Of a DNA stretch of 64,000 nucleotides, positions 16,924-36,450 are shown piece after piece. Source of the stretch: an uncultured Acidobacteriota bacterium (GTDB lineage: Bacteria > Acidobacteriota > Thermoanaerobaculia > Multivoradales > UBA5704). The position numbers and the translations under genes are program-made. Numbering within the stretch: the stretch's first letter is position 1; each line of letters begins with the position of its first letter. The stretch covers positions 3,588,555 through 3,652,554 of the forward strand of contig CAVYRF010000002.1 in the NCBI GenBank assembly GCA_963770895.1, written 5' to 3'. Under the pieces are notes generated by a model, which worked only from the letters and a program-made list of their open reading frames with translations, was not told the DNA's origin and did no database searches.

Positions 16924-19900
16924 ATGAACCTGGCTGCCGATCGTGCTCCGATGGCCTTGCTCGCGCCAAGGCATCGGCGCATATTCTTCCTGCCCTTGCT
17001 GCTTCATTTGCTCACGGCCGCGACATCCTTCGCCCAACTCGACCAGACCTGCACGGTGAGCGCCTTGAACCGGACGGCACAGGTGGATGGCAACGGGGTC
17101 TGGGTGCTTACAAACGTGCCGGCAGGAACTGGCCAGGTGCGAGTGCGCGCAGCGTGCATGGCAAACGGCACGACCCGGTATGGGCAGTCGGACCTCTTCA
17201 CGGTGCCGGTCAACGGCGCCATTCTGGTGAGCGATATTTCCTTTGCGAGCCAGGTACCGATTCCGTCGAGCCTGACGCTCACGGGACCGGGCTCGCCGCT
17301 GTCAGGTGCCGGCCAGCAGGCGCAGCTTTCGGCCATTGCGACCTACCCTGACGGCACGACGGGGGACCTCACGCCCAGCAGCACGGGCACCGGATATCTA
17401 TCGAGCAACCCGTCGGTGGCAAGTGTGGACGGGAACGGAGTGGTGACGGCCAACGCCAGCGGCACGGTGGTGATCAGCGCATTGAACGAGGGCGTGCTTG
17501 GCGTGGTGCAGGTACAGGTGGTGCTTTCCGGCAGCACGGTGGGCGACGGCATCCCGGACGATTGGAAGGTGGCGCACGGACTTGATCCCAACGATCCGTA
17601 CTGCGCGCTGGAAGATCCCGACAATGACGGGCTCACCAACCTGGAGGAGTACCAGTACGGCACCGATCCGAACAACCCCGATACGGATGGCGACGGGCTG
17701 TCGGACGGCGACGAGGTGCACCTCTACCACACGAACCCGCTCCTATGGGACACGGACGGGGACGGGATCTCGGATGGAGTCGAGGTGCGGACGGGGAGCG
17801 ATCCGCTCGACATCCACAGCTTCAACCTGGCGGCGGCGCTCTCTTCGGTCACGGTGTCTCCGGCCGCGTTCACTTTGGTCTTCAATACGGTGAGCGGCCA
17901 GGCGTCGCGACAGATCGTCGCCACAGGCAACGTCATCGACGGCCGCACCATCGATCTCTTCGATCCGCGCTACCAGACCCAGGTCGCATCGAGCAACCTC
18001 GCGGTCGCGAGCTTCGGAGTGCGACCGGGCCAGGTGTTCGCCGGGCAGAGCGGCACGGCGACGGTCACGGTGAGCAACAGCGGCTGGACGGCCGCATCCA
18101 CCGTGACGGTGACGACGTTCTCGCCCACGGCCCTGGCGTTCCTGCCGCTTCCTGGATTTCAGAATGCGGTGGAGGCGGCAGGCGACTTCGTGTTTGTGGC
18201 CTCCGGCGGCTTCGGGCTGTCAGTCGTGGATATGACCAACTTGCAAGCGCCGGTGCTCGTCGCTCAGACGCCCACCCCGGGCAGTGCGAACGATGTGCGG
18301 GTTTCTGGCACGGTGGCGTATGTGGCCGAGGATGTCGGTCTGCAACTGCTCGACGTGAGCGATCCGGCCCACCCGGCGCGGCTCGGCAGCCTGAGCCTCC
18401 CCGAGGGCGACCAGGTGCGTCTGGCGGTAGCCGGCAACCTGGTCTATCTCGCCGACATGAACTTCGGCCTCCACGTGGTGGATGTGACGAACCCCATGCA
18501 GCCGGTCGAGGTCGGCTCGCTCGCGCTCGGGGGCACGCCGCGGGCGGTCGGTCTCGGCGGAATCGGGCTCGGCGGGTTCGCTCTCGCCGGATCGTATGCC
18601 GTGGTTGCCTGCGGCGATGGGGGTGTGGCGGTGGTGGACGTGAGCGATCCGGCGGCGCCGTCCCTTGTGGGCGCCACGCCGGAGGATGCGCCGCGCGCCG
18701 GCAGCGTTACGGTGCGCGGCCACTACGCCTACGTGGCCGCCGGCGAGGAGGCGGTCTACGGCGGCTTGCACGTCGTGGAGCTTGCCGACCCGACGAATCC
18801 TGTGGAAGTGGGGGCGAGCGAGGACGACCTCGGGGTGACCCGGGCGGTGCTCCAAGACGGGTTTGCCCTGGGCGCGCAGTTCTTCCTGGCCGCGCAGGTG
18901 GCAATCTTCGATGTCAGCACCGTGCCTCCTGCCTATACGGCGGTGCTCGACCTCTCGACCTTGCCCGGCGGCGAGGGGGTCGTCGCGCCGCGTGCCAATG
19001 ACATCGCGGTGCGCAACGGCGCGGTCTTCTTGGCCGCCAACGGGTATGAGCTCGGCGAGTTCGCGAGCTACGCGACCTCTCAGGGGGGCCTCTACACGGG
19101 CCTCTTCGAGCTGCCGAACGACGGTGACACGACTCCGCCGACCGTGGCCCTCTCCGCACCGACGGCCGGGTCCGCGGTGATGGAGCGGCTGCCGGTCACC
19201 GTGACCGTCGCGGCGCAGGATGAGGTCTCAGTCACCTCGGTCGGCATCCTGGTCGACGGCGCCCTCGTCGAAACGCTCTACAAGCCGCCGTATCAGACCA
19301 CCATCCACGTGCCGTCCGGGCAGCCGACGATGACGCTCGGGGCGGTGGCGACGAACATCAGCGGCGTCCAGGCGACGACGACGGAGACGCTTACCGTCCA
19401 GCCGTACCCCTTGCCCGTCGCGACGCTTCTCGCGCCCGTGCCCGGCCAGATTCTGATCGACGGCACGCCGCTCACGATCGCGGTTGCGGCGAGCGACGCC
19501 GTGGCGGTGACGCGGGTCGAGGTCTATGTGAACGGCGCGCTCGTCGGCACGGCTTTCACGCCGCCGTACCTCTTTCAGGTCACGCTGCCGCGCGGCTCGG
19601 CGACGCTCGCGGTGACGGCGCTCGCATACAACGCGCTGGGGCCGGGCGCGATGTCGGCGCCGGTCGCTGTGCCGGTCCAGCCAGACGTGCCGCCCACGGT
19701 TGCGATCTTCTCGCCGGCCGACGGCGCGCAGGTGACCGAGGGAAGTGTGGTCTCGATCTTTGCAGGCGCGAGCGACCTGACCGGAATCGCAAGCGTGCTC
19801 TTCGATCTGAACGGCGTCGAGTTCCAGGGCACCGCCACCGCACCCTACGTTGCCCAGGTCGTGGCGCCGCCGGCGGGCCAGACCATGGTGCTCGATGTCG

Positions 19901-20970
19901 TCGCGACCGATACCGTGAACCTGGCGGCGCAGTCAGCACCGGTCACCGTTACGAGCGTGGTCGATCCGGGAACGGCGGTGAGCGGCACGGTGCTCGATCC
20001 GACCGGCGCCCCGGTCTCGGGAGCGAGCATCGTCGTGGTTGCGGGCGCTTCCTCGGCGAGCGCCACCTCCGGTGCGGACGGGTCCTTTACGGTGAGCGGC
20101 CTGCCGACCGGGAGCGGCGCCTTCGAGGTGAGCGCGGTCGGCACGGTGGGCGGCTGCCAGGCGGAGGCCGATGCCGAGGTGCCGCCGCCCCCGCCGGGCC
20201 GCAACGAATCGCTCGGCAACCTGACGCTCGTCCGGCCTCCGGCACCGGAGCCCACGGCCGTGACCGGCGTCGTTGTCGGTGCCGACGGCCAGGGGCTCTC
20301 CGGTGTCACGGTGACGGTTTCGAGCGCCGACCTGGCGGACACCGCCACCGTCCTAAGCGGCTTCGGTGGCGCCTTCTTGGTATCGACCTTCCCCGCGCGG
20401 GCCTGGACCCTCCAGGCCGAAGCGACGGTCGTGAGCGGCGGTGTTCTGCTCTCCGCCGCAAGCGACCTGCATGGCCCGCACGCGGTCGCGGGCGGCACGA
20501 CGGACCTTGGCACCCTGACCCTGAGCCCCTATCCCTTCACCGGCCCCGATCCCTTGACCACGGTCACCGGCCAGGCCACGAACCTCGACGGCTCACCGGC
20601 CGCCGGCGCCCAGGTGGTGCTCGACGTGGGCGATGGCCAGATCGTCGCGACCGCCGCTTCCGACGGAACCTTCGCCGTTTCCGGCGTGCCCACCCTGCAA
20701 GGCACGCTGAAGATCACCGCCTCGCTCCACCTGCCGTGCAACGTGCTCCTGGTTGCCGGCCCCATGACGGTGAGCGAGCTTGTGGCCGGCGGCCAGACCG
20801 CCGTGAGCCTCCCGCAGCTCGTGCCCGATCCGGGGCCGCCGCCGCCGATCATTTTCACTTCGGCACCGGTCGGAGGGTGGCCCGCGGAAGGCATGCGGTG
20901 CGTGGCCGCTCCGAGCGCCGCCGACGGATGGTTTGCGACGCTCACGAGCGCGGCGGAGTTCCTGCGTTGA
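16924..20970 (+). CDS. Giant secreted surface protein (1348 aa): Big_2 domain, thrombospondin-type-3-like Ca-binding repeats, LVIVD beta-propeller repeats, Ig-like and CarbopepD_reg-like domains
   Basis: Signal peptide '[18 protein letters not shown]'. '[45 protein letters not shown]...[13 protein letters not shown]' are TSP3/calcium-binding repeats. Repeated 'VA-G--GL-VVDVS-P' units are LVIVD repeats. Multiple 'PPTVA..SP..G' Ig-like modules. '[22 protein letters not shown]' is CarbopepD_reg-like. Confidence 0.75.
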   Translation: [1348 protein letters not shown]

Positions 20971-23388: not shown

Positions 23389-23709
23389 ATGACCTCCAGG
23401 AAAAGGGCACTTCCCCCTTCACGCCTATTCTGGTCCTGCGGGCGTCCACGGTCAAGCGGATGCGAAAAGCCAGGAAGCCCGGCGGGCCATTCCCGCTGTC
23501 AAGGCAAGTGTAAACAGTGAGCCGCGCGGGCTTGTGGCCCCCGCCGTCGTGGGCAAGCCAGGTGCTTTCGATCCGAACACGCCAGGCTTGCCCTTGCCGG
23601 GCGTGCTTGAGCGTCACCCGCCGGGATGCCGGCGCCGCAGGCGGGTCCGGCGGAGCCCCCCGCGCCTGGGTTGGGTTGGGGGACTCCGCCGGATGTGGGG
23701 GTGGGGCGT

Positions 23710-25617
23710 TTACCGGGGCCGGGACCGGCCGCCGGTGGGAGGAGCGAGCGGCGCGGCAGGGGGCGGCCCGCCGCCGGGCTTGTTGCGCCGGCGCAGGCGC
23801 CCCACGGCCACGCTTCCGAGCAGGGTGAAGAGCGTCGCCAGGCCGGCGCTGCCCAGGGTCGGGACGGCGGCGGGCTGGGTGGGTGTGCCCGGGCCGCCGG
23901 GATTGCCGGGTGGCTGGGGCGGGGTCTGGGCGCTGGAGCAGGCGGTGTCGCCGGCGGCGTCGGTCAGGCAGGAGCTGTTGGCGATCTGCTGCAGTCCGGC
24001 CGGCAGCGGCGCGGCGGCGGTCAAGGCGAAGGTGCGGGTGCCGGAGGCGTCGGCCGGCAGCGGCCCCAGGGCCAGGGTGCAGGTGGCGCCGGGACCGCCG
24101 GCGGCGGGCGAGCAGGTCCAGCCGGGCGAGCTGGCGGCGGCGGCAAAGGCGGTGGCGTCCGGGACGGTTTCTCCCAGGCTGGCGGCGGCGGCGTCCTGGT
24201 CGCCGGTGTTGGCGTAGGCCAGCTGAAAGACCAGGGTGGCGCCGGCGGCCAGGGCCGGGCCGGCGTAGCTCTTGGCGAGCGACAGGTGCGGGTTGCCGTG
24301 GGTGGGCGAGGAGACGCTGGCGCAGACCGGCGCCAGGCCGGCGGCGCTGGCGCAGGCGGTGTTGGCGATGGCGGTGATGCCGGCGGGAAGCGGCGACGCG
24401 ACGGTGACCGCGAAGGTGCCATGGAGCGTGGCGCCGGCTGCGAGGGTACCCAGCGCGTCGGTGCAGCTGGCGCCGGCGGGGCCGGCGGCGGGGACGCAGC
24501 TCCAGCCTGGCGAGCCGGCGGCGTCGAAGGCGGTGGCGGCGGGGACGGTCTCCGCCAGGACGACGCTGCCGGCTCCCTGGTTGCCGGTGTTTTGCACCGC
24601 CAGGTCCCAGGTCAGCACGCCGCCGGGCGCACCGGTGCCCTGGGTGAGCGATTTGACCACCTTGAGCGCGGCGGCGCCGGTGGTGGCGGTGGCGACGCTG
24701 GCGCAGGCGGCGACGGTGGTCGGGCCTTCGCGCACGCAGGCGGTGTTGTTGATCACGCTGACGCCGGCGGCCAGAGGGCTGGCGAGCGTCACCGCGAACA
24801 GGCTGGTGAGCGTGCCGTCAGCGGCCAGGTTGCCGACCGGGTTGCGGCACAGCGCGCCGGGGTTGCCGTCCGGCGCGCAGACCCAGCCGGCGGCGCTGGC
24901 GGCGGCGTCGAAGGTGGTATTGGCCGGCACCGTGTCGACCAGCTGCAGGCCGCCGTCGCCCAGGCCGCTCAGGTCGCGCACCGTCAGGGTGTACAGCAGG
25001 GTCGAACCGGGGGCTCCGGAACCGGCGGCGGTCTTCTGCAGGCTGACGTGCGATGGCGTCGCGGCGCCGCAGGCGGCGGCGCCGGCGCCCTGCGAGGCGG
25101 CGTCGAACGAGCGGCCGTCGGAGGTCGTCGCCTGGGCGGTGGCGGTGAAGGCCGGTGAGGTGGTGGACTCGAAGAGCGCCTGCCAGGTGACGACCACGGT
25201 CCAGCTGTTGTTGTCGAGCGGGTCTGCCGGACAGCTGAAATTGACCGCGCCCGAGGTGTCGCCGGGGCCGTTGCCGCGCGCCACGGTGGGCTGGCAGCCG
25301 ACGGTGAGGTCGTTGTCGATGCGCAGCGTCCCCGGCTGGTAGACCAGACCGCTGGTGCCGGCGCCGGGGATCGTCAGGCTGCCGGTGAGCGCCGGGGTGC
25401 CCGAATCGCGGGTGGCGTAGGTGGCGCTCAGCAGCACCGGCTCGCCGCAGTCGAGGATGCCGTTGCCGTTGACGTCGACGAAGCCGGCGACCGCGACCTG
25501 GAGAGACGGTTGCGCCGCGAGCGGCGGGGCGGCGCCGCCCAGCAGGACGGCGCGGATGGTGGCGCCGCGGGTGCGGCGGCAGGCAGGGGGGGTGGTGGGG
25601 GTGGCGGGTGGGTGCAT
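23710..25617 (-). CDS. Cell-surface protein with four DUF11-type conserved repeat domains and a C-terminal IPTL-CTERM-like sorting signal
   Basis: ATG at 25617 with an AAAGGAGGG RBS. Repeats of 'L-K...G-PG--L-Y-L-V-N-G...V-L-DTVP-...F' are present, for example 'LQKTAAGSGAPGSTLLYTLTVRDLS...LVDTVPANTTF'. C-terminus 'VPTLGSAGLATLFTLLGSVAVGRLRRRNK' has the xPTL motif, a hydrophobic helix and an Arg cluster. Its start lies 26 nt after the parB-like stop. Confidence 0.75.
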   Translation of the reverse strand: MHPPATPTTPPACRRTRGATIRAVLLGGAAPPLAAQPSLQVAVAGFVDVNGNGILDCGEPVLLSATYATRDSGTPALTGSLTIPGAGTSGLVYQPGTLRIDNDLTVGCQPTVARGNGPGDTSGAVNFSCPADPLDNNSWTVVVTWQALFESTTSPAFTATAQATTSDGRSFDAASQGAGAAACGAATPSHVSLQKTAAGSGAPGSTLLYTLTVRDLSGLGDGGLQLVDTVPANTTFDAAASAAGWVCAPDGNPGALCRNPVGNLAADGTLTSLFAVTLASPLAAGVSVINNTACVREGPTTVAACASVATATTGAAALKVVKSLTQGTGAPGGVLTWDLAVQNTGNQGAGSVVLAETVPAATAFDAAGSPGWSCVPAAGPAGASCTDALGTLAAGATLHGTFAVTVASPLPAGITAIANTACASAAGLAPVCASVSSPTHGNPHLSLAKSYAGPALAAGATLVFQLAYANTGDQDAAAASLGETVPDATAFAAAASSPGWTCSPAAGGPGATCTLALGPLPADASGTRTFALTAAAPLPAGLQQIANSSCLTDAAGDTACSSAQTPPQPPGNPGGPGTPTQPAAVPTLGSAGLATLFTLLGSVAVGRLRRRNKPGGGPPPAAPLAPPTGGRSRPR

Positions 25618-25643
25618 GGGTGTACGGTCCCTCCTTTGGGGGG

Positions 25644-26555
25644 TCAGGCGAGGCAGGCGTACAGCTGCTCGACGCGCTCGTCGGGGCTGCCGTGCGGCTG
25701 GCTGCCCAGACGGACCAGCAGCGTGTCGAGCTGCGGCGTGGTGAGCTGGACGGTCAGCGGCTGGTGGAGCCCGGCGGCGACCGTGGGATCCAGGTCGGGG
25801 GCAGGATGGCCGGCGGTGCCGCCGGCAGGGGCAGGGGAAGGATCGGTGGGGGGCGCCGTGGCGGCGGCGAGGTCACTGCCGGCGTAAGCACCGGCACCGG
25901 CGCCGGCGTCGCGCAGCTGGGCGGCGATTTCGATCTGCTGCACCGTGATCGGGCCGCCGGTGCGCCGCGCCAGCGCCAGCAGGCGATTCTGCTGGGGCGC
26001 CGGCAGGCGATCGAACAGGTTGGCGCCCAGGATGCTGGCCAGGAACCCCTCGCGCAGCGCGTCGCCGAGCGGGCCGGTGGCGGCGGCCAGGCGCAGGTAG
26101 TGGGAGCACCAGGCGGGCGAGCGGTGGTGCCGGCGGGCGAAGTCGGTCTTGGTCAGGCCGGAGAGCGCCACGGCGCGGGCGATGGCGCGGGCGCGGTCGT
26201 AGAGCGACAGGCTGCGCCGCAGCTCGCCGTCGTTTTCGTCGAGCTGCAGCATGAGCCGGTCGGACGGCGACAGCGGCTCCTGGCGCACCACGACCGGCAC
26301 CGCCTGCAGGCCGGCCAGCTGGGCCGCCTGCCAGCGGCGGCCGCCGGTGATGATCTGGAAGGGCGTCGTCGCGCGCGCCGCCGGCAGCGGGTGGGGCGCC
26401 ACCAGCAGCGGCTGGATGACGCCGTGCGCCCGCACGCTGGCGGCCAGCGCCTCCAGGTCCGGCCCGGCGATCGTGCTGCGCGGCTGGTCCGGGTCGGGGG
26501 CGATGGCGGACACGGCGACCAGCAGGGCGCCGGCCGGCGCGGCGGGAGCGCTCAA
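25644..26555 (-). CDS. ParB/KorB-like protein (ParB N-terminal domain plus HTH)
   Basis: 'HGVIQPLLV...ITGGRRWQAAQLAGLQAVPVVV' carries the ParB/Srx GxRRxxAA box. 'LTKTDFARRHHRSPAWCSHYLRLAA' is the ParB HTH. A 4-nt overlap with the trbI stop places it inside the trb operon. Confidence 0.75.
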   Translation of the reverse strand: MSAPAAPAGALLVAVSAIAPDPDQPRSTIAGPDLEALAASVRAHGVIQPLLVAPHPLPAARATTPFQIITGGRRWQAAQLAGLQAVPVVVRQEPLSPSDRLMLQLDENDGELRRSLSLYDRARAIARAVALSGLTKTDFARRHHRSPAWCSHYLRLAAATGPLGDALREGFLASILGANLFDRLPAPQQNRLLALARRTGGPITVQQIEIAAQLRDAGAGAGAYAGSDLAAATAPPTDPSPAPAGGTAGHPAPDLDPTVAAGLHQPLTVQLTTPQLDTLLVRLGSQPHGSPDERVEQLYACLA

Positions 26556-28297
26556 GGAGGGCCTCCCTGGGCGGAGGAGCCGGCCGCCTGGCGCGGCGTG
26601 CCGGGCAGATCGGCGGTGACGAAGACAAAGAAGGGCGTGCCGGCGGGCACGCGCAAGGTCGGCTGCACGGCCAGGTCGCGGCGCACCAGCTCCAGGCCGA
26701 CGCTCGACAGCTCCTGGCCCAGGGCGGCGGCGGCGACCTGCTGGCTGCTGGGCGCCGTCGCGAAGCCGCTGGCCGCCGGCTGCGACAGCTGGGCGCCGGC
26801 GCCCAGCAGCGACAGCAGCACGGCATCGCCGAACACCCGCCGCAGGTGGTTGTCGGTCTGCGCCGGCAGGCCGGCGGCGCCGGTGGCGTCGGCGGCGGGC
26901 AGGCCGGCGACTTCGACGCTGCCGCCGTCGGCGAACAGGAAGCGGGTCCAGGCGACCAGCAGGCGGTTCTGGCCGGCGGCGACCTGGTCCTGGTAGCGCC
27001 CCAGCAGGCGGGTGCCGCGCGGGATGACGACCTGTCGCAGGGTGCCGTCGTAGACGTCGCGGCTGACCTGCGCCAGCAGCGGCCCGGGCAGACCGGAATC
27101 GACCGCCGTCAGCAGGGTCGCCGAGATCAGCGTCCCCGCCGCCACCGTCCCGCCGGCGGCCGGCGCGCGGTAGCGCACCGCGAGCGGTTCGCCGCCTGCC
27201 GGGGGGTGCCCGGCCAGCGCCTCCCAGCGCGAGCCGCCAGGACTGCCGCTGGCGGCGGCGCTCGCTCCGGCGCCGGGTCCGCCGCCCGCTCCGGCTCCGA
27301 TGCCCGCTCCGGCACCGCCGGCACCGCCGGCACCGCCGGCTTCAATGCCAGTTCCGGCTCCGATTTCTGCTCCGCCACCGGCGCCTGCTCCGGCGGCGCC
27401 CGCGGCGTCCGCCGGCCGGCGTGGCGGGCTGCCTCCTTCACCGGCGCCGCCGGTGACCGGGCCGACATTCGGGGGCGCCGGCGGGGCTGCCGCGGCGTCT
27501 GGCCCTGCGGCATCGCCACCTGCGCGGCCCTGGCTTCCGCCGCCGGCGTCCCCGCCACCGTCCCCGCGGCTACCCCTGCCGCCATCCCAGCCTTCGCTGG
27601 CCGGGAACCAGCGGCCCTGCCGTGGCGCACCCTGAGCGGCGCCGATCGCGATCGCCAGCGGCGAGCGCAGGGCGCGCTGGAAGGCGGCGCGGGGGCTGCC
27701 GGGCGGTTCGCCGGTGCCAGTCGTGGTTGCAGTTGCGAAGGGTCCGCCGCCGGCCCCATAAGCTTCCGCGCCGCCCTGTCCGCCGGCGCCTGCCTGGGCG
27801 GTGCCGGCCGCGCCGGCCGCCGCGTTGCGATCGCCGCCGGGCGCCTGCAGCAGGCGCATCAGGCGGGCGGTTTCGGCCGCCGCGGACGGGTCGGCGCCCT
27901 GAGCGTCGCCGGCGCCATCGACCGCGCCGGTGCCGCCTGCGGCACCGATCCCGGCGCCGGCTCCGGCGGCACCAGCGCCGGCGGCTCCGGCCCCGCCTCC
28001 GGCGGCCAGTCCAGCCGCGATCGCCGCGGCAGCATCGCCGGCGCCCGCCGGCCGCCCGGCCACGGTGCCGGGAGCCAGGCGCAGGAAGCCGGGGGCGCCG
28101 CCTTCGAGGCGTTGCGCCAGCGCCAGGCCGGTCGCCCGCGGCGGCGGTGGCGGCGCGGCCAGGAAGACCGCCGCCAGCAGGGTGACGATCAGGATGAGCG
28201 CCGCCACCAGCAGCACGGCGCGGTTGAGCCGCCGTACGGTGTGGGACAGGATGGGCGGCACCTTGGACGGCAGCGGCGAGCCGGAAACCGGGTCCAT
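26552..28297 (-). CDS. trbI: Conjugal transfer protein TrbI (VirB10 family)
   Basis: N-terminal TM anchor, a ~300-aa Gly/Ala-rich low-complexity linker, and a C-terminal TrbI/VirB10 domain ('LISATLLTAVDSGLPGPLLAQVSRDVYDGTLRQVVIPRGTRLLGRY...NRLLVAWTRFLFADGGSVEV'). Confidence 0.85.
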   Translation of the reverse strand: MDPVSGSPLPSKVPPILSHTVRRLNRAVLLVAALILIVTLLAAVFLAAPPPPPRATGLALAQRLEGGAPGFLRLAPGTVAGRPAGAGDAAAAIAAGLAAGGGAGAAGAGAAGAGAGIGAAGGTGAVDGAGDAQGADPSAAAETARLMRLLQAPGGDRNAAAGAAGTAQAGAGGQGGAEAYGAGGGPFATATTTGTGEPPGSPRAAFQRALRSPLAIAIGAAQGAPRQGRWFPASEGWDGGRGSRGDGGGDAGGGSQGRAGGDAAGPDAAAAPPAPPNVGPVTGGAGEGGSPPRRPADAAGAAGAGAGGGAEIGAGTGIEAGGAGGAGGAGAGIGAGAGGGPGAGASAAASGSPGGSRWEALAGHPPAGGEPLAVRYRAPAAGGTVAAGTLISATLLTAVDSGLPGPLLAQVSRDVYDGTLRQVVIPRGTRLLGRYQDQVAAGQNRLLVAWTRFLFADGGSVEVAGLPAADATGAAGLPAQTDNHLRRVFGDAVLLSLLGAGAQLSQPAASGFATAPSSQQVAAAALGQELSSVGLELVRRDLAVQPTLRVPAGTPFFVFVTADLPGTPRQAAGSSAQGGPP

Positions 28298-28300
28298 GGC

Positions 28301-29479
28301 TCACTCCTCCCTGCCGGCGGCGCCGGCGGCACCGGGGGCGCCGGCGGTGGCGGCCGGGTCGTCTGCCGTCCGCCGGGGGCGCTGGCGGCCGGCCGCGTGG
28401 TTGACGATTTCGAGCTGCTGCCGGTGACCCTTGCCGGCGCCGTCGCCGATCACCAGCACGGCGCGGTCGACGACGCGGTCGGTGACGTAGGCCTGCTGCT
28501 CCAGCCGGTAGTTGAGCAGGGCCAGGGAGCCGTCGGGCTGGGCCGCCAGCAGCGCCGGCGCCTCGGCGTGGCGGGCGGCGTCGGGGAGCAGGATGTAGGT
28601 GTGCTCGCCGTCGTCGAACACCTGCGACGGCGTCCACGGGAAGCCGCGGTCGCGGCGCCAGCGGTAGTCGAAGTTGAGCTGCGACAGCGCGACGCCGGGG
28701 GCCAGCGCGGCCGGCGCCCGCGCCGCGGCGGCGGCGGCCGCGGCCTGGGCCGCCGCGGCGGCGCGCTCGGCGTCGGCCCAGCGCCGCACCAGGTCTTCGG
28801 GGTAGTAGAAGCGCAGCAGGCCGGTGTAGGGCAGGCGTGGGTTGTAGCGTTGCGCGGCGCCGCGCGGTTCGCGGCAGGGCGGCGAATCCAGGCTGACCTC
28901 GTAGACCCGCCGGTCGGTCGCGATCACCAGGTTGGTGCTGACGTCGCACGCGGTCGGCTTGACCAGGACCAGCGGGGTGCGGGCTCCCGGCCCCGACGCC
29001 GCGGTCTGCACCAGCCAGCGTTCGCTGTCGCCGGTGGCGGTGGCGAGCAGCGTTTCGGCTTCCTCCAGCTGGATCGCGCAGGCGCGCAGCGGCGCGCACC
29101 GCACCACCGGCCGGGTGTGGCCGTAGGGCACCAGCACCGTCGCGCCGCCCAGCTCCAGCGACTTGAGGTCCGCCGCGTCGCCGCTGGCGCGCCAGGCGCG
29201 CGTCAGCGCCTCCCCTGCGCCCGCGCCCTGGTCCGCGCCGTCGCCGCCGGCGGCGGATGGCGCCGCGGCGGCGGCCGCGCCGGCGCCCGCGGCAGCGGCA
29301 GGGGCGGTGGGGTCGGAGACCGGGGCAGGGGCGGCGCCGGCGGTCCAGGGGCAGATGAGCAGCACGGCGAGCCAGCAGGCCGGCGCCGGCCACGGCAGGC
29401 GGCGGCGCCGGGAGCGGGCGGCGGCGAGGGCGCCATGGCAGGCGGCGCCGGAGGCGGGGGAGAGGGGCGGGCGGATCAT
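28301..29479 (-). CDS. trbG: Conjugal transfer protein TrbG (VirB9 family)
   Basis: Signal peptide. CagX/TrbG-type motifs ('RFYYPEDL', 'NFDYRWRRDRGFPWTPSQVFDDGEHTYILLP', 'YVTDRVVDRAVLVIGDG'). ATGA overlap with trbF. Confidence 0.85.
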   Translation of the reverse strand: MIRPPLSPASGAACHGALAAARSRRRRLPWPAPACWLAVLLICPWTAGAAPAPVSDPTAPAAAAGAGAAAAAAPSAAGGDGADQGAGAGEALTRAWRASGDAADLKSLELGGATVLVPYGHTRPVVRCAPLRACAIQLEEAETLLATATGDSERWLVQTAASGPGARTPLVLVKPTACDVSTNLVIATDRRVYEVSLDSPPCREPRGAAQRYNPRLPYTGLLRFYYPEDLVRRWADAERAAAAAQAAAAAAAARAPAALAPGVALSQLNFDYRWRRDRGFPWTPSQVFDDGEHTYILLPDAARHAEAPALLAAQPDGSLALLNYRLEQQAYVTDRVVDRAVLVIGDGAGKGHRQQLEIVNHAAGRQRPRRTADDPAATAGAPGAAGAAGREE

Positions 29480-30252
29480 CGCGGGTCTCCCATGGAGAGC
29501 TGCGTCCAGTTGATCTCGGTGACGAACAGGCCGAGCGGGTTGGTGAGGATGGCGGCGGCGGTCTCGGGCGGCTGCTGCTCGACGCGCAGGTAGGCTTCCC
29601 AGGCGGCGGCGCGCGGCGCACCGGCGAAACGGGGGCGCTCGATCTCGCGCCAGCTGACCTTCCAGGTCTGGCTGCGCGGCACCTGCAGCACGGCGGTGAC
29701 GTCGACCTGGCGGGTGATGCCGCGGCCGAGCACGCGCGGGTCGTGGGCGGGATCGGCGAACCAGGCGTCGAGGGTGGCGCGGGCGGGGCCAGCCAGGTAG
29801 GCGTAGGCGTCCAGCAGCCGCACGCGCTCGGCTTCGGGATCGGCGGAGACGGCGCGCAGGTTGCGGATGAGCGCCGCCAGCTGGAACACGGTGACGCGGC
29901 TGTCGCCGCGGCGCAGACGTTCGGCGGGACCGAACGCCAGGGCCTGGCCGAAGCGATCGACTTCGACCACGTAGGGGGTGATGCGCGAGGCGGCGCCCTG
30001 GCGGATGTAGGCGGCCAGGACGCCGGCCAGCAGCGCCAGCAGGGCGAAGCTGACCAGCTGCCAGTTGCGCTTGCCCTTGGCGAGGTCGCCGAAGACGCTG
30101 GCGAACTCGTGGCGCGCGGCCAGGAACGGATTGGCCGCGGGCCGCCGGGCCGCGGCGACGTCCCTGCTGCGATCGGTGCGATCGGTGCGATCGGTGCGAT
30201 CGGGCCGAGCGGGCCGATCGGGGCGGGCGGTGCGAGCGGGCCGGCCGGTCAT
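29476..30252 (-). CDS. trbF: Conjugal transfer protein TrbF (VirB8 family)
   Basis: Single TM ('WQLVSFALLALLAGVLAAYI') followed by a VirB8-like periplasmic domain ('ITPYVVEVDRFGQALAFGP...RVTVFQLAALIRNLRAV'). The ATG is embedded in ATGA overlapping the trbL stop. The ORF-track ORF 29476..31803 upstream of this ATG is out-of-frame noise. Confidence 0.8.
   Translation of the reverse strand: MTGRPARTARPDRPARPDRTDRTDRTDRSRDVAAARRPAANPFLAARHEFASVFGDLAKGKRNWQLVSFALLALLAGVLAAYIRQGAASRITPYVVEVDRFGQALAFGPAERLRRGDSRVTVFQLAALIRNLRAVSADPEAERVRLLDAYAYLAGPARATLDAWFADPAHDPRVLGRGITRQVDVTAVLQVPRSQTWKVSWREIERPRFAGAPRAAAWEAYLRVEQQPPETAAAILTNPLGLFVTEINWTQLSMGDPR
30174..30230. repeat. 9-bp imperfect tandem repeat (~6 units) inside the trbF 5' coding region, encoding (TDR)/(PDR/PAR) repeats
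   Basis: 'gcgatcggt gcgatcggt gcgatcggt gcgatcggg ccgagcggg ccgatcggg' on the plus strand. On the coding (minus) strand it encodes 'ARPDRPARPDRTDRTDRTDR'. Confidence 0.7.
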
Positions 30253-31265
30253 CGCAGCGAGTCCTGGAGCCGCAGGGTGGCGCCCTGGGTGAGCCGCGCC
30301 GCCACCGCCGCCGGCACCCGCCACACCAGCAGACAGAGGATGAGGGCGCCGGCGAGCAGCTGGAAATCCAGCGTCAGCGACGGCGCCGGGGGCTGTCCGC
30401 CGGCGCCGGCCGGCGTCAGGCTGAGCACCACCCACTGCCGCGACAGAGCGGTGCCGACGCCGGCCAGCAGGTACAGCAGGTAGACCCGGACGCCGGTCTG
30501 GAAGGCGTACAGCAGGTAGCCCTCGGCAAAGGGCGCGGTGCCGCGGAAGCTGGCGAAGCCCAGGAACAGCGCCCCGCCGGTGAGCACGATGTAGGTTTCG
30601 ACCAGCGTCATGCAGATCTGCGCCGCGATGCCGGCGTAGGCCAGGACCACCAGCAGCGCCGTCGCCGAGGCCACGATGTTGCCGGTGGGATCGGTGAGAA
30701 AGCCGGCGTTGCCGACGGCGAGCAGCAGGTTGGAGGCGATGGTGATGCCCAGGTCGAGCAGCTGCGACGGGTTGACGGCGGTGGTGCCGGTGGCGCTCTG
30801 GCCGGCCGCCTCGAAGCCGCGGGTGATGGCGGGCACCCACAGCGGGAACAGGTAGATCAGGCTGAACAGGAACGACAGCAGCATGAACTTGCGCAGCAGC
30901 GCCGCCAGCGCCGCGTCCAGGCCGTCGCGGCCGAGCGCCCACCAGATGCCGGACACCGCCAGCTCCAGCGTGGCGAGCAGCGCGAAGGTCCGTTCGGCCA
31001 GCGGCACGATGCGCGCAAGCCAGCCGGCGGCGGCCGTTTCGTAGTCCAGGACCAGGCCGTCCACGACGCCGGCCGCGTCCTGCTGCCGCGGCACCCCCGG
31101 CTCGCCGGCGGCGGCGCCGGCGGCGCGGGCGGGCACAGCGAGCGCCAGCGCCAGCAGCACCACCACTGCCAGCGCCGGCAGCACCGGCAGCGCCAGGCGG
31201 ATCGGGCAAGCTCTCCCCATTGCCGCCGCGCTGGGGCGGCGGGCAGGTCCATGCAGGCTTGACAT
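30249..31265 (-). CDS. trbL: Conjugal transfer protein TrbL (VirB6 family)
   Basis: Polytopic membrane protein with TrbL/VirB6 signature segments ('LLRKFMLLSFLFSLIYLFPLWVPAITRGFEAAG', 'ICMTLVETYIVLTGGALFLGFASF'). Confidence 0.85.
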   Translation of the reverse strand: MSSLHGPARRPSAAAMGRACPIRLALPVLPALAVVVLLALALAVPARAAGAAAGEPGVPRQQDAAGVVDGLVLDYETAAAGWLARIVPLAERTFALLATLELAVSGIWWALGRDGLDAALAALLRKFMLLSFLFSLIYLFPLWVPAITRGFEAAGQSATGTTAVNPSQLLDLGITIASNLLLAVGNAGFLTDPTGNIVASATALLVVLAYAGIAAQICMTLVETYIVLTGGALFLGFASFRGTAPFAEGYLLYAFQTGVRVYLLYLLAGVGTALSRQWVVLSLTPAGAGGQPPAPSLTLDFQLLAGALILCLLVWRVPAAVAARLTQGATLRLQDSLR

Positions 31266-31277
31266 GGCGGCTCCGCG

Positions 31278-32096
31278 TCAGTCGGCCGGCCAGGCGGGCG
31301 GCGTGAAGGTCCAGCCTGGCGAGGCGTTGATGGCGGCGGCGCGGGCGGCGTCGGCGGTCATGGCGCCGAAGGTGGCGCGCGCCTGGGCTTCGCGGTTGAT
31401 CCAGTAGCCGCCGGCGACCGCCTGCAGGTTGGTCTGGACGGCGAGCGCCTGGCGGGTCAGCAGCTGCTCCTGGGCGGAGAAGCCGGCGAGCGTGGTGAGC
31501 AGCTCGAGCGCCTGCTGGTGACCCTGGGTGCCGGCCATCTGGGCGCGGATCGCGGCCAGCAGCTGCTCGCCGGCGGCCAGCTCCTGGCCCTGGCGGGCGG
31601 CGGCGGCGAGGCCGGCGCGCAGGGTGTCGAGCGCCCGGTCGGTCTGCTGCGGGTAGGTGGTGCCGAAGGTCGCGGTCCAGCTCTGCCAGCCCGGATAGGT
31701 GGCGGTGAACTCGCCGCCGGGGTCGGGCAGCGAATAGCCGAGCGACTGCCCCGAGCGCGCCAGCGCCGCCAGGTCGCCCAGCTCGCTCGCCACCTGGCGC
31801 CATGCCGGCGCGTCGAGCTTGCGCAGCGCCTGGAGCTGGTAGCGGATCTGCTGCGCCTGGTTGGCCAGCTGCTCCACCTGCTGGTAGATCTGCAGGGCGA
31901 ACTGCAGGTAGTGGACGTAGTGCCAGTGCGCGTTGAGCGCGATGTGCGCCACGTCGGTCACCGGGATGATCGCCGCCGCGGGCGGCGTCGCGGCGGCCGT
32001 CTGCAGGACCAGCGCCAGGGTCGCCGCGGCGGCGACCGTGCGGCGGCGGCGCGCGGCAGCGGGGGAGGGGGCGGGGGGGCGTGGCAGGATGGTCAT
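31278..32096 (-). CDS. trbJ: Conjugal transfer protein TrbJ (VirB5-like)
   Basis: Signal peptide 'VAAAATLALVLQTAAATP', then a coiled-coil-rich TrbJ-like sequence ('IIPVTDVAHIALNAHWHYVHYLQFALQIYQQVEQLANQAQQIRYQLQAL'). Start at MTILPRPP. 4-nt overlap with trbE. The upstream portion of the 1095-aa track ORF is not in frame with this protein. Confidence 0.75.
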   Translation of the reverse strand: MTILPRPPAPSPAAARRRRTVAAAATLALVLQTAAATPPAAAIIPVTDVAHIALNAHWHYVHYLQFALQIYQQVEQLANQAQQIRYQLQALRKLDAPAWRQVASELGDLAALARSGQSLGYSLPDPGGEFTATYPGWQSWTATFGTTYPQQTDRALDTLRAGLAAAARQGQELAAGEQLLAAIRAQMAGTQGHQQALELLTTLAGFSAQEQLLTRQALAVQTNLQAVAGGYWINREAQARATFGAMTADAARAAAINASPGWTFTPPAWPAD

Positions 32097-34669
32097 CGCG
32101 GGGTCTCCTTCTGGACGGCGGGGGTGGCGGGTGCGAAGCCGGCGGCGAGCCGGTCGTAGAGCGGCAGGTGCGCGGCCAGGCCGCGGCTTTCCAGCCAGGC
32201 GCGCGGCCAGCCGGCGCCGTGGCTTTCGATCAGCTGGCGCGCCTGGGCGATCGCCTCGGGCAGGGTCATGCCCTCGGGGGTGCCGACGAAGGCGAGCGCC
32301 GCCGGGCCCAGGCCCAGCTCGAACAGGCGCGAGCCGCGCGGGCTCTTGAAGTAGTAATCGCGCTTGCGGCGGGCGTGGGCGATGAGGTGGATCTCGGCGT
32401 CGTTGAGGCCCAGGTCCAGGTAAAGGGCGCGGTGGCCGGGCGCGGCGGCCTCGGGGTTGGCCAGCAGGATGCGGGTGGGGCAGCTCTCCAGCAGCACGTG
32501 CCGCGACGGGCTGTCCCACAGCTGCGACAGGCTCTGCGTCGCCAGCACCACGGCGGCGTTCTGCTTGCGCAGGGTGAGCAGCCACTGCTTGATGCGCGCC
32601 GCGAAGGCGCTTTTCATCAGCGGCAGCCAGGCTTCCTCGATCACCAGCAGCGACGGCCGCCCCTGCTCCAGGCGCTGTTCGACGCGATGGAAGAGATAGA
32701 GCAGGACCGGCAGCAGCACGCGGTCGTCCATGTCCACCAGGCGCTTGAGCTCGAAGACCTGGTAGGGGCCGCCGTCTTCCAGGTCGTCTCTCCCGGCGTC
32801 GAGCAGGTGGGCCAGGTTGCCTTCGGCATAGGGGGCCAGAGCGGCCGCCAGCTCGCGCTCCTGCAGCTGCGGCACCAGCTCGGACAGGCGCCGGTGCTGC
32901 CGCGGCTCGGTCGACAGCAGCGCCAGCGCCGCGGCCAGGGCCTGGCGCGCCGGCGGCGTCACCGCGACGCCGTTGACCGCCAGCACACCCTCCAGCCACT
33001 CCAGCGCCCACAGCCGTTCGCCGCGGCGGTCGATGGCGGCGAGCGGTTGCAGCGCCACCGGCTCGTTGACCAGGTCGTAGTGCCGGGCGCCGGCGGCGCG
33101 CGCCAGCAGCCACCCCGAGTAGCCGACGTCGAAGCTGAACGCCTGCGCCCGCGGGTAGCGCAGGAACTGCGCCAGCAGCAGGTTGAGCAGCGTGCTCTTG
33201 CCGGCGCCGGTGCCGCCGACGACCAGGGTGTGGCCGACGTCGTCGTCGTGCAGGTTGAGCCAGAACGGGGTGGCGCCGGTGGTCGCCGCCCACAGCAGCG
33301 CCGGGCTGCGGCGCGGGAACAGCGGCGACGGGTTGTGCGGCAGGCCGGGCCAGACGCTGGTGACCGGCAGCAGGTCGGCCAGGTTGCGGCTCGACACCAG
33401 CGGCCGCCGCAGGTTGGCCCAGCCGTGGCCGGGGAGGCTGCCGCGCAGCGCCTCCAGGGCGTTGACGTCTTCGACGCGGGCGGTGAAGCCGCGGTCGTTG
33501 AGCGCCTTGACCACTTCGGCGGCGTTCTGGTCGGCGCGCGCCGCGTCGCGCTCGGCGACCAGCACCACCGGCGTGTACAGGCAGAAGCGGACGCGGCCGG
33601 AGGCGTTGTCCGCCGCCGCCAGCGCCGCGTCGCGCGCCATGGCGCCGGCGTCCTGATCCAGGAACAGCTCGTCGTCGCGCTCGCGTGCGGCGCTGGGCGC
33701 GGCGCCGTCGCCCACCGTCAGCTCGCGCAGCCAGGAGGCGGCGCCGCGGCGCTTTTTGAACCAGCCCAGGCGGACGCGGGCGATGTGGCGCGCCGCGACG
33801 GCCTGCGACAGCGGGATGATGCGGTGGGAGGCGCGGAAGGCGAAGCCCAGGCCGCCCAGGAAGTCCAGGATGCCGGAGAACGATTCGTGTGGGAAACCGT
33901 GGATGGCGACGATGCGCACCGCCAGGTCGCCCACCCGCGGCATCCAGCCGCCGGCGACCGGCTGGTCGGCGAGCAGCCCGTCCAGCCAGGCGCCGTGGGC
34001 CGGCGCCTTGACCGGGTGGTCGAGGCCGGTCAGGCAGGCGTGCAGGTGGGTGAGCAACTCGTCCGAGCCCAGGCGCACCACCTTGAGATGGGTGGACAGG
34101 CGCCGTTCGAGCTGCGCCGCCTCCGACTGGAAGGTGTCGTGCAGCTCGCTCCAGGCCCGCAGGCCGCCGCCCTGGCGGCCGCGCACGAAGAGGGCCGCCA
34201 GGCGCGAATACAGCTCGCGCGGCGGCAGGTAGGTGGCGGCCAGCACGCTGTCGCTGACGAAGTGGCCTCCCGCCGTCTCGTAGGCGGCGCGCCGCTCGGC
34301 GTCGAGCAGCGCGGTGACCGGGTCGGGGAAGGCCCCCGGCGGCGCATAGCCGAGCGCCGGGCGGCGGCGAAAATCGACGTGGAACATCCAGCCGTCGCCG
34401 TAGGGGAGCAGGGCGTCGTGCAGCTGGGCCGCCAGCGCCTCGAGCTCGGCGGCGGTGGCGGCCGCCAGGTCGGGGCCGCGGTAGCTCCAGGCGGTGAGCA
34501 GCGAGCCGTTCTTTTGCAGCACGGTGCCCGGCGCCACCAGGTGCAGCCAGCCGAGCAGGTCGCACAGGCCGCGCGGCTCGCGCCGGTGCTCGCGCAGGCG
34601 GTCGAGCAGCTGCGCGGCGGCGCCGCCGGCCACCAGGGTCAGCGCGGTTGTGATCGGCGTCAGGCTCAT
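32093..34669 (-). CDS. trbE: Conjugal transfer ATPase TrbE (VirB4 family)
   Basis: Real start at MSLTPITT (34669). VirB4 Walker A 'VVGGTGAGKSTLLNLL'. Walker B / DE region 'LLVIEEAWLPL'. Conserved C-terminal 'ATQSLSQL'. Length about 858 aa. Confidence 0.9.
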   Translation of the reverse strand: MSLTPITTALTLVAGGAAAQLLDRLREHRREPRGLCDLLGWLHLVAPGTVLQKNGSLLTAWSYRGPDLAAATAAELEALAAQLHDALLPYGDGWMFHVDFRRRPALGYAPPGAFPDPVTALLDAERRAAYETAGGHFVSDSVLAATYLPPRELYSRLAALFVRGRQGGGLRAWSELHDTFQSEAAQLERRLSTHLKVVRLGSDELLTHLHACLTGLDHPVKAPAHGAWLDGLLADQPVAGGWMPRVGDLAVRIVAIHGFPHESFSGILDFLGGLGFAFRASHRIIPLSQAVAARHIARVRLGWFKKRRGAASWLRELTVGDGAAPSAARERDDELFLDQDAGAMARDAALAAADNASGRVRFCLYTPVVLVAERDAARADQNAAEVVKALNDRGFTARVEDVNALEALRGSLPGHGWANLRRPLVSSRNLADLLPVTSVWPGLPHNPSPLFPRRSPALLWAATTGATPFWLNLHDDDVGHTLVVGGTGAGKSTLLNLLLAQFLRYPRAQAFSFDVGYSGWLLARAAGARHYDLVNEPVALQPLAAIDRRGERLWALEWLEGVLAVNGVAVTPPARQALAAALALLSTEPRQHRRLSELVPQLQERELAAALAPYAEGNLAHLLDAGRDDLEDGGPYQVFELKRLVDMDDRVLLPVLLYLFHRVEQRLEQGRPSLLVIEEAWLPLMKSAFAARIKQWLLTLRKQNAAVVLATQSLSQLWDSPSRHVLLESCPTRILLANPEAAAPGHRALYLDLGLNDAEIHLIAHARRKRDYYFKSPRGSRLFELGLGPAALAFVGTPEGMTLPEAIAQARQLIESHGAGWPRAWLESRGLAAHLPLYDRLAAGFAPATPAVQKETPR

Positions 34670-35001
34670 GGCGTCGTCGGCAGCGCCGGGTCGGGAGGCG
34701 CGGGCGGCGCGTGGAGCGGCGCGCCGGCGGCGTAGAAGTCGGCGCCGCGCAGGCTGCGCACGTAGAGGTCGGCGACGCGCGGGTCCTTGGCGCACAGGAA
34801 GACGGCCAGGGGGTGGAAGACCAGGGCGTAGAACAGGGCGAGCGCCAGGGTGAGCAGGTGCGGCCCGGCTTCGAACAGCAGCAGGAACACCGCCGCCGCC
34901 TCGAACAGCAGGAACTGCGGCGCGACGCCGGCGTAGAGCACCGGCCGCCACAGCGAGGCGTGCAGGCGCGTCTTGGCCGGGGTGGTGGGCGTCGAGGTCA
35001 T
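34666..35001 (-). CDS. trbD: Conjugal transfer protein TrbD (VirB3 family)
   Basis: 111-aa protein starting at MTSTPTT. 'LHASLWRPVLYAGVAPQFLLFEAAAVFLLLF' is the characteristic VirB3/TrbD hairpin TM region. ATGA overlap with trbE. Confidence 0.7.
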   Translation of the reverse strand: MTSTPTTPAKTRLHASLWRPVLYAGVAPQFLLFEAAAVFLLLFEAGPHLLTLALALFYALVFHPLAVFLCAKDPRVADLYVRSLRGADFYAAGAPLHAPPAPPDPALPTTP

Positions 35002-35023
35002 CGCGCTGGTCTCCGCCGTCTGG

Positions 35024-35386: not shown

Positions 35387-35459
35387 GACGGGGTTTCCTC
35401 CGGGGTGGGGTCCAAGGCGGCCGTGGCAGCTGGGCGGTGGTTGGGGAGCGGTGGCGGGC

Positions 35460-36443: not shown

Positions 36444-36450
36444 CCGCGTA

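Follow-up and report, generated by a model that had tools for sequence, protein, structure and literature searches.

A CLIPPER-repeat protein with an IPTL-CTERM-like anchor, encoded last in an Acidobacteriota Trb type IV secretion cluster, is a candidate accessory adhesin

The final gene of a Trb-type type IV secretion system (T4SS) cluster in an uncultured Acidobacteriota bacterium (Thermoanaerobaculia; contig CAVYRF010000002.1 of assembly GCA_963770895.1) encodes a protein of CLIPPER (formerly DUF11) repeats with an IPTL-CTERM-like membrane anchor. The gene lies on the reverse strand of a 64-kb stretch of DNA, the whole of which was analysed and is called the window here, and its homologues come from metagenome-assembled genomes (MAGs) of Thermoanaerobaculia/Acidobacteriota and from soil metagenomes. 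With a probability that we put at roughly one half, the protein is a fibrillar adhesin-type envelope protein and a lineage-specific, strictly conserved accessory of the Trb (MPF_T) T4SS in Thermoanaerobaculia/Acidobacteriota. By analogy with known adhesins, it would most likely be surface-exposed and act in cell–cell contact.

Results

The CLIPPER gene closes a complete Trb cluster

The open reading frame (ORF) at 23710–25617 (reverse strand) is a real gene of 635 codons' product length (635 aa), with a G+C content at third codon positions (GC3) of 0.94, as expected for genes of the source genome. Searches with Pfam, NCBIfam and tblastn placed it at the end of a same-strand run of TrbB-C-D-E-J-L-F-G-I and a ParB-like gene. 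This agrees with the original prediction, made from the bare sequence, that the gene is the distal one of a T4SS run and that parB stands between it and trbI. The features of the cluster are listed below in gene order; L053 belongs to the locus of the closest orthologue (L001/L053), whose TrbE is 86% identical to that of the window.

35460–36443, reverse strand: TrbB/VirB11 ATPase, first of the cluster (PF00437, E=7.1e-32)
35024–35386, reverse strand: TrbC/VirB2 pilin (PF04956, E=5.2e-17)
34732–35010, reverse strand: TrbD/VirB3 (tblastn, 77% identity to the L053 VirB3-family gene)
32093–34669, reverse strand: TrbE/VirB4 (PF03135, PF19044; 86% identity to L053 TrbE)
31290–31961, reverse strand: TrbJ-position gene (no Pfam match; tblastn, 72% identity to the L053 gene; kept in all related loci)
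30249–31265, reverse strand: TrbL/VirB6 (PF04610, E=1.1e-21)
29476–30200, reverse strand: TrbF/VirB8 (PF04335, E=7.4e-35, and tblastn; C-terminal part of a longer mechanical ORF, start approximate)
28301–29479, reverse strand: TrbG/VirB9 (PF03524, E=1.2e-39; TIGR02775)
26552–28297, reverse strand: TrbI/VirB10 (PF03743, E=7e-48)
25644–26555, reverse strand: ParB-like protein with ParB_N, a helix-turn-helix and a GGRRW box (PF02195, E=4.4e-19; TIGR00180, 85 bits); its start overlaps the trbI stop
23710–25617, reverse strand: CLIPPER/DUF11 protein with IPTL-CTERM-like anchor, last of the Trb cluster (ORF, GC3, PF01345 and structural model)
23646–23693, reverse strand: G+C-rich hairpin of 16 bp, about 20 nt past the CLIPPER stop, no U-tract (RNA fold of 23590–23715, minimum free energy -68.1 kcal/mol, z=-2.2)

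The TrbB homologues carry the name 'P-type conjugative transfer ATPase TrbB' in their source records. The longest ORF for TrbE extends to 34951, and the alignment with its orthologue begins at about 34669. The N-terminal region of TrbI is unusually long, with about 380 Ala/Gly-rich, low-complexity residues ahead of the TrbI domain (aa 384–564).

The CLIPPER gene starts 26 nt past the parB stop, with a ribosome-binding site AAGGAGG. When this gap was checked for a terminator or promoter that might separate the gene from parB/trbI, nothing resembling either was found, and RNA structure across it was not significant (z=-0.82). The sole promoter-like site of the region precedes tatA, and the 16-bp hairpin may mark the end of the operon. 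The short, uninterrupted gap and the hairpin after the stop therefore make co-transcription of the CLIPPER gene with the trb genes likely.

The family is tied to the Trb machine

Surveying other genomes for T4SS clusters that end in a DUF11 protein, as had been suggested, revealed Trb genes immediately upstream wherever enough DNA was available. The order TrbB..TrbI–ParB–homologue was present in each individual context (P0003, P0004, P0005, P0048, P0002 and P0077), and these contexts span homologues of 36–69% identity and TrbE identities down to 40%. A genome scan with TrbE yielded 16 loci, and all three of the sufficiently long Thermoanaerobaculia loci (L009, L011, L012) have TrbI–ParB–homologue. 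In a more distant Trb cluster (L021, TrbE 52% identical), TrbI is followed by a coupling protein and an S26 peptidase, with no homologue. A metagenome scan that used the N-terminal-domain motif NGxLDC[GL]EP alone returned 28 loci, seven of which start too near a contig end to inform; in every one of the 21 informative loci, TrbI, or ParB and then TrbI, lay directly upstream of the homologue. Outside these 21, L038 gave no tblastn match to ParB/TrbI, and its upstream ORF has a ParB-like C-terminus.

Two layouts were observed: TrbI–ParB–homologue, as in the window, and TrbI–homologue without ParB (eleven loci). The existence of the second layout implies that the constant partner is the T4SS and not ParB. 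The ParB position is kept in L001–L009, L011, L012, L026–L032, L035, L040, L050, L051 and L055; one sub-lineage has the ParB-like gene as a constant between trbI and the CLIPPER gene and another is without it, and candidate roles for the ParB-like product include a KorB-like regulator, a partition protein or a nuclease. Downstream of the homologue the genes vary, and include a PKD-like secreted protein, AAA_25 plus a TubC_N-like protein, RepA_C and tyrosine integrases. Across loci, the identity of the CLIPPER protein tracked that of TrbG (Spearman rho 0.63, n=23), a correlation that is only supportive because the loci are not independent and the correlation with TrbI is weak.

MPF_T systems are known in Acidobacteria (PMC3548315), and the present family is annotated generically as DUF11 or IPTL-CTERM proteins. 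The literature searched held no paper tying DUF11/CLIPPER or IPTL-CTERM proteins to a T4SS or describing these elements, in keeping with the earlier view that such a gene lies outside any canonical conjugation module. What is new is the proposal of a CLIPPER/IPTL protein as a T4SS accessory adhesin, with an unusual adhesin type, anchor and host phylum.

The protein body consists of three CLIPPER repeats with predicted isopeptide bonds

Hidden Markov model (HMM) searches placed both DUF11 models above their cut-offs: PF01345 (DUF11, now renamed CLIPPER) scored 70.7 bits (cut-off 24.6, E=1.6e-19), with its best stretch at aa 318–424, and TIGR01451 scored 36.8 bits (cut-off 24). All 54 homologues tested also matched DUF11/CLIPPER. 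The original prediction had counted four such repeats; three are canonical (aa 188–314, 315–441 and 442–566), and they follow a distinct, divergent N-terminal domain (aa 41–187) of the same fold class. An AlphaFold2 (AF2) model built on 71 homologues (mean predicted local distance difference test score (pLDDT) 88.3) showed four successive all-beta domains followed by a disordered linker and one helix at the C-terminus (590–611). In this model the CLIPPER repeats are all-beta, with pLDDT >90, and are of the CnaA-like immunoglobulin (Ig) beta-sandwich fold. The parts of the protein, from the N-terminus, are as follows.

25510–25617, reverse strand: N-terminal leader, aa 1–36 (MHPP...RRTRGATIRAVLLGGAAPPLAAQP), which aligns to the signal peptides of P0003/P0004; pLDDT <50
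25057–25497, reverse strand: N-terminal distal domain, aa 41–187, a divergent CnaA/pilin-type beta-sandwich in its own AF2 model (pLDDT 93.8)
24676–25056, reverse strand: CLIPPER repeat 1, aa 188–314, triad K195/D228/N291, cysteine pairs C247–C257 and C294–C305
24295–24675, reverse strand: CLIPPER repeat 2, aa 315–441, triad K322/E356/N419, cysteine pairs C374–C385 and C422–C432
23920–24294, reverse strand: CLIPPER repeat 3, aa 442–566, triad K449/E483/N547, cysteine pairs C502–C513 and C550–C560; beta-strand pattern in the model
23779–23865, reverse strand: IPTL-CTERM-like segment, aa 585–613, with VPTLG, transmembrane helix (590–611) and RLRRRNK (PF18203, TIGR04174, AF2 helix)
23713–23778, reverse strand: Pro/Gly low-complexity tail of 22 aa after the basic cluster, ending RPR (sequence)

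Residue conservation was scored across 54–71 homologues. Invariant columns include K195, K449, N291, N419 and N547, with K322 near-invariant, and each repeat has four invariant cysteines and one invariant tryptophan (W245 in repeat 1); the acidic residue (D228/E356/E483) is also conserved. The family profile aligns the Lys, acidic and Asn residues of the repeats to the isopeptide positions of a solved CLIPPER domain, 9IFR (E=0.006), which was reached by the family profile only: phmmer of the window protein against PDB sequences gave no match. In 9IFR a Lys–Asn isopeptide bond has been demonstrated, probably catalysed by a nearby Asp, and gives resistance to heat and proteases (PMC12617251). 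By analogy, one Lys–Asn isopeptide bond is predicted for each CLIPPER repeat of the window protein. Its paired cysteines fit this picture because most isopeptide domains of Acidobacteriota also carry disulfides (PMC12617251).

CLIPPER domains form the stalks of fibrillar adhesins (PMC12617251). Stalk length in the present family, counted as W.C repeat motifs, ranges from 3 to 7, with three in the window copy and four in most homologues. A Foldseek search with the whole model yielded generic Ig strings only (integrin legs, alpha-2-macroglobulin) with TM-scores <0.3.

A leader and a rare distal domain precede the stalk

P0003 and P0004 have clear signal peptides that end AAQP/ATAQP; the leader of the window protein can be aligned to these and finishes in the same AAQP context. 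Its hydrophobic core is weaker by hydropathy than that of the orthologues; on this alignment the leader is probably a Sec signal peptide.

When the N-terminal domain was used in Foldseek, the matches were EbpB, the CLIPPER domain 9IFR, RrgB, AgI/II C-domains and PrgB Ig domains, with TM-scores of 0.4–0.5. As modelled, the domain therefore shares the fold class of the CLIPPER repeats in a divergent form, and the Lys/Asn isopeptide signature is absent from it. It carries a near-invariant loop, FxDxNGNGxLDCGEP, which resembles Ca-binding loops in sequence. Few sequences have the domain: of 1.84 billion cluster representatives searched with phmmer, 74 matched, about 20 of them over its whole length. 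An identity as a GEVED domain was rejected (19.6 bits against a cut-off of 24.4), the fold search having led to CnaA/pilin Ig domains instead.

The C-terminal segment is a variant of the IPTL-CTERM signal

The peptide VPTLGSAGLATLFTLLGSVAVGRLRRRNK, quoted in the original prediction as the C-terminus, was located at aa 585–613 (nt 23779–23865), and is not terminal: 22 further residues, PGGGPPPAAPLAPPTGGRSRPR, follow RRRNK. The layout of motif, transmembrane helix and Arg cluster was correctly recognised, and its assignment to IPTL-CTERM holds for the family while the window copy itself falls below the HMM cut-offs. PF18203 scored 19.3 bits against a cut-off of 20.8, matching profile positions 1–28 of 28, and TIGR04174 scored 14.9–17.6 bits against a cut-off of 20.5. 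Across the family, P586 and L588 are invariant and T587 near-invariant, the pattern [IV]PTL[GSND]–transmembrane helix–Arg is present in about 100 of 120 homologues, PF18203 matches 27 of 54 homologues at E<=0.001 (best 4e-9), and several homologues are named IPTL-CTERM proteins by NCBI. The family therefore belongs with the IPTL-CTERM proteins, and the window copy is, judged by its motif, a slightly degenerate VPTL variant.

In the description of the IPTL-CTERM model, the domain sits at the extreme C-terminus. In the present family, low-complexity tails of 0–60 aa past the basic cluster are common, and the positive-inside rule predicts a cytoplasmic location for them. Loss of a stop codon or a frameshift was considered as the origin of the tail in the window copy and discarded, given that orthologues have comparable tails and no alternative frame improves the N-terminus. 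Similarly, the RPR ending was tried as a T4SS secretion signal and dismissed: it is found only in the window protein and P0003/P0004, and the tails of the 120 homologues are variable with many endings. An NCBIfam match of the transmembrane/Arg segment to 'midcut-by-XrtH' (22 bits, cut-off 45) involved the generic transmembrane-plus-basic part only and was likewise discarded.

No candidate for an IPTL-CTERM sorting enzyme was recognised in the window or in related loci. A second IPTLG–transmembrane–RR string in the window (57152–57238, forward strand) is a chance match near the N-terminus of a polytopic PMT_2-like membrane protein; the ORF that hosts it (56867–58687, forward strand) has no Pfam match, and a PMT_2 gene of equal length stands at the orthologous locus. 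In L055, a 115-aa ORF between the PKD gene and AAA_25 (14262–14609, forward strand) ends AIPTF–transmembrane helix–RRRLR, an IPTL-like layout, and may encode a second small substrate or be a chance match.

Conjugative relatives and a relaxase-less window lineage

A complete element was found on one metagenome contig (L054 plus L055), in the order TrwC relaxase, coupling protein, sigma-like gene, S26 (TraF-like) peptidase, TrbB-C-D-E-J, a small TrbK-position gene, TrbL-F-G-I, ParB, CLIPPER/IPTL protein, PKD protein and AAA_25. In L011, too, TrwC, a coupling protein and S26 precede TrbB, and integrases lie 3–6 kb downstream of the homologue in L005, L007, L029 and L040. One Thermoanaerobaculia MAG (SMAG_U6239) holds seven TrbE loci (L009, L016, L018, L019, L020, L022 and L023). 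TrbE is partial in L017 (residues 1–660) and L023 (22–256), with a tyrosine integrase downstream on the same contig at about 0.4 kb and 4.6 kb, respectively, a pattern that suggests an element that proliferated and then decayed. From the complete elements, the closing integrases and the seven-locus MAG, it follows that the ancestral setting was an integrative conjugative element. Defence-type genes are found upstream of trbB in two loci: a TIR-CHAT-STAND-TPR protein with a C-5 cytosine methylase in L012 (1138–7226, reverse strand) and a caspase-domain protein in L017 (767–2998, reverse strand).

The T4SS assignment of the window cluster stood as regards its full Trb set, and the genes for DNA transfer are missing around it. 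Pfam searches of the large ORFs of the 64-kb window found no relaxase or coupling protein, tblastn with the TrwC, coupling protein and S26 peptidase of L054/L011 found no match there, and it contains no integrase homologue. A mating role is thus doubtful for the window copy, unless the relaxase and coupling protein are supplied in trans, because both are missing nearby.

The closest orthologous locus shares this condition: both it and the window are without TrwC, coupling protein, S26, TrbK-position gene, PKD protein, AAA_25 and integrase. They have downstream synteny in common (tatA and a 118-aa gene) and glycosylation genes upstream. In both, all nine Trb genes, parB and the CLIPPER gene are intact. 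Ratios of non-synonymous to synonymous substitution (dN/dS, NG86 method) between window and orthologue were 0.24 for TrbE, 0.25 for TrbL, 0.38 for TrbB, 0.44 for TrbI, 0.46 for ParB, 0.47 for TrbG and 0.51 for the CLIPPER gene, with dS constrained because third positions are strongly G+C-biased. On these sequence comparisons, the window module is a chromosomal copy without a nearby relaxase, coupling protein or integrase that is kept under purifying selection.

Surroundings of the cluster in the window

On one side of the cluster lie genes for a sulfatase and a giant glycosyltransferase/methyltransferase; on the other lies tatA. The sulfatase (36766–38094) lies directly upstream of trbB. Beyond it, 38136–42854 (reverse strand) encodes a 1572-aa fusion of at least one glycosyltransferase group-1 module (two GT1 stretches in Pfam) and a methyltransferase domain. 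The trb block and its upstream neighbours (24001–42000) have a G+C content of 0.74–0.79, except for one 2-kb bin (36001–38000) at 0.71, and farther out (14–18 kb, 42–48 kb) the values are 0.63–0.69; in composition the region resembles an island.

Two giant secreted repeat proteins, neither with an IPTL-like tail, are encoded farther away on the forward strand: one of 1348 aa at 16924–20970 (LVIVD, Big_7, bacterial TSP3, CarboxypepD_reg) and one of 1597 aa at 11185–15978 (Glucodextran_B, CBM96, CarboxypepD_reg).

Discussion

A candidate adhesin of the Trb T4SS

As an accessory adhesin, the CLIPPER protein would be exported by Sec through its N-terminal leader, weak as this is in the window copy. 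Folding in the periplasm would give a row of four CnaA-type Ig-like domains, with two disulfides and, as extrapolated from 9IFR, one autocatalytic Lys–Asn isopeptide bond locking each CLIPPER repeat. The VPTL–transmembrane–Arg segment would provide anchoring or sorting, with the Arg cluster and tail staying cytoplasmic under the positive-inside rule until the IPTL-CTERM sorting step, if one exists. The rigid stalk would then hold the N-terminal domain, with its Ca-binding-like loop, at the far end, where it may stabilise cell–cell contact for the T4SS as a diderm counterpart of PrgB and of p34 of pLS20.

Several observations weigh against this account. The N-terminal domain is without a recognisable ligand-binding fold, being a further Ig-like sandwich matched at TM-scores of 0.4–0.5 only. 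A coupling protein and a relaxase are missing within 23–27 kb in the window and within about 10 kb in the closest orthologue. The window copy is of the shortest type, with three W.C motifs against four in most homologues, and is without a membrane-proximal domain of about 170 aa that its orthologues have; its signal peptide is weak. The IPTL-CTERM HMMs are sub-threshold for it, and the segment is not at the extreme C-terminus. Finally, a C-terminally anchored inner-membrane protein would have to cross the diderm outer membrane, and no route for this is evident. Set against the features of a fibrillar adhesin, the window copy therefore has a stalk and an anchor, a weak leader, and a distal domain with no known ligand-binding fold.

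Alternative explanations

A different role for the protein would be that of a substrate or displayed cargo which, after Sec export, the Trb machine itself would move from the periplasm across the outer membrane, or mount on the pilus, with no coupling protein; the T4SS would then serve this IPTL-CTERM protein as its export route. Pertussis toxin leaves the periplasm in a comparable manner: the Ptl T4SS of Bordetella exports it with no need of a coupling protein. Such a role would account for a gene that strictly adjoins the Trb genes in all informative loci and is kept with an intact Trb set where relaxase, coupling protein, TraF-like peptidase and integrase are lost, and no other outer-membrane export route is evident. 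We consider it improbable all the same: no interaction with any Trb component was seen here, the C-terminal transmembrane anchor and Arg cluster would need prior removal, and no T4SS link is reported for many IPTL-CTERM proteins, the Methylomirabilis S-layer protein (PMC8671808) among them, which means that the signal is not T4SS-specific. It is similarly unlikely that the protein is never surface-exposed and acts as a periplasm-spanning, bitopic inner-membrane accessory, its Ig stalk being a spacer or scaffold beside TrbI/TrbG. The transmembrane helix, the positive-inside Arg cluster and a cytoplasmic tail of 0–60 aa, which would be unusual if the signal were cleaved off at the very end of the protein, are consistent with this topology, as are the position of the gene immediately after trbI and the integrin-alpha-like Ig strings (thigh, calf-1, calf-2) that the whole-model fold search returned at low TM-scores. 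A stalk of three to seven repeats, however, poorly fits a fixed periplasmic width, and the variable repeat number therefore argues against a strut of fixed length; moreover, four to seven Ig domains exceed a typical periplasm, and the CLIPPER gene has a higher evolutionary rate than the core Trb genes, a tendency of exposed proteins.

Two further roles appear less probable still. Surface exclusion, by which carriers of the element would be barred as recipients, could be expected of a conserved, element-encoded, envelope-located protein; TraT of F is one such factor and PrgA of pCF10 another, the latter a long surface protein that is reported to provide exclusion (bioRxiv 10.1101/2020.06.18.156562). 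Yet the gene is kept in the relaxase-less window lineage, where exclusion would be of little use, and with seven TrbE loci in one MAG any exclusion must be weak. Complete elements also already have a small gene between trbJ and trbL, which by position equivalence only we take to occupy the slot of the entry-exclusion gene trbK in RP4. The TrbK-position gene and the multi-copy genomes therefore argue, weakly, against exclusion. We give as little credence to hitch-hiking cargo, in which the gene would encode a biofilm or substrate adhesin serving the host, with no tie to the T4SS, and the window copy might be a decaying remnant. Adhesins are frequent on mobile elements, the copy in the window is shortened and its leader weak, and the trb block (G+C 0.74–0.79) exceeds the regions farther out (0.63–0.69) as an acquired island would. 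Cargo, however, varies between related elements, whereas this gene keeps the same slot across TrbE identities of 40% to 86% and in two layouts, while the surrounding genes (PKD protein, AAA_25, integrase, defence genes) come and go; such strict positional conservation amid variable neighbours argues against cargo, as do the dN/dS of 0.51 and the retention of every key Lys, Asn, Cys and Trp in the window copy.

Significance

The reading as a T4SS accessory adhesin leaves room for a more specific and speculative variant, which we regard as improbable: in the window lineage, the stripped Trb T4SS might have been kept as a chromosomal organelle of adhesion or surface display, with the T4SS carrying the Sec-exported, isopeptide-locked CLIPPER/IPTL protein across the outer membrane. 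If true, an IPTL-CTERM protein would for the first time have an export route assigned to it, and Bartonella Trw and Bordetella Ptl would have a parallel in a free-living soil bacterium.

In proteobacterial P-type systems, contact is thought to depend on the pilus and nothing else. An adhesin of its own, as a constant part of the trb operon, would be a Gram-positive-style solution in a diderm, and could be among the factors that set host range for gene flow in soil. Acidobacteriota are a dominant phylum in soil, and their conjugation has had essentially no study; a 2013 survey of T4SS evolution stated that nothing was known of it (PMC3548315). The family also offers an entry point to the orphan IPTL-CTERM signal, as one in which the signal is always partnered by the same machine. 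The complete conjugative copies and the conserved relaxase-less copy form a natural comparison for asking whether the pair of T4SS and adhesin serves any purpose beyond DNA transfer.

Comparison with known systems

The CLIPPER repeats resemble the Acinetobacter protein B9T28_05395 (9IFR; PMC12617251) in their CLIPPER match, CnaA-like fold and aligned isopeptide triad, with predicted disulfides as described there for most Acidobacteriota domains, and, like the stalks of CLIPPER fibrillar adhesins, they stand in tandem between a leader and a C-terminal sorting-type signal. Unlike those adhesins, the window protein is encoded within a T4SS cluster, its tip is a lineage-restricted domain and not a known adhesion domain, and its anchor is IPTL-CTERM-like with an extra tail. 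This anchor has the motif, transmembrane helix and Arg cluster of IPTL-CTERM (PF18203/TIGR04174), with a match over the full length of the model and matches in half of the homologues tested; it differs in having VPTL and not IPTL, in scoring 1.5–5.6 bits under the cut-offs in the window copy, and in its 22 trailing residues (0–60 in homologues).

The secretion system itself is like the IncP/Ti-type Trb (MPF_T) systems (PMC3548315), with TrbB, C, D, E, J, L, F, G and I complete and in canonical order, and relatives, though not the window, carry TrwC, a coupling protein and a TraF-like S26 peptidase. The canonical module, by contrast, encodes no adhesin, and after trbI it either stops or runs on into further trb genes. 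Here, a ParB-like gene and the CLIPPER gene have been added as constant parts, and coupling protein, relaxase and peptidase are missing from the window copy.

For function, the closest precedents are adhesins whose genes lie in conjugation operons of Gram-positive bacteria. Two examples, PrgB of pCF10 and p34 of pLS20, the latter with a thioester domain (PMC8092201; bioRxiv 10.1101/2022.10.21.513195), are, like the present protein, surface-type proteins with a Cna/Ig stalk encoded in a conjugation operon, and the Ig-like domains of PrgB and the AgI/II C-domains were among those returned by Foldseek for the window N-terminal domain. The likeness ends at fold class, with no sequence homology beyond it: the window protein has no thioester or polymer-adhesin domain and no LPXTG/sortase signal, and its setting is a diderm host and an MPF_T T4SS with a TrbC pilin. 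For the role that the T4SS may have in the window lineage, Bartonella Trw (PMC2883598) is the nearest precedent, as a conjugation-derived T4SS without a coupling protein whose proposed primary role is adhesion via surface-exposed components. In Trw, adhesion proceeds via amplified pilin and VirB5 variants, whereas in the window lineage, where the coupling-protein absence is known for 64 kb, it would fall to a dedicated CLIPPER protein.

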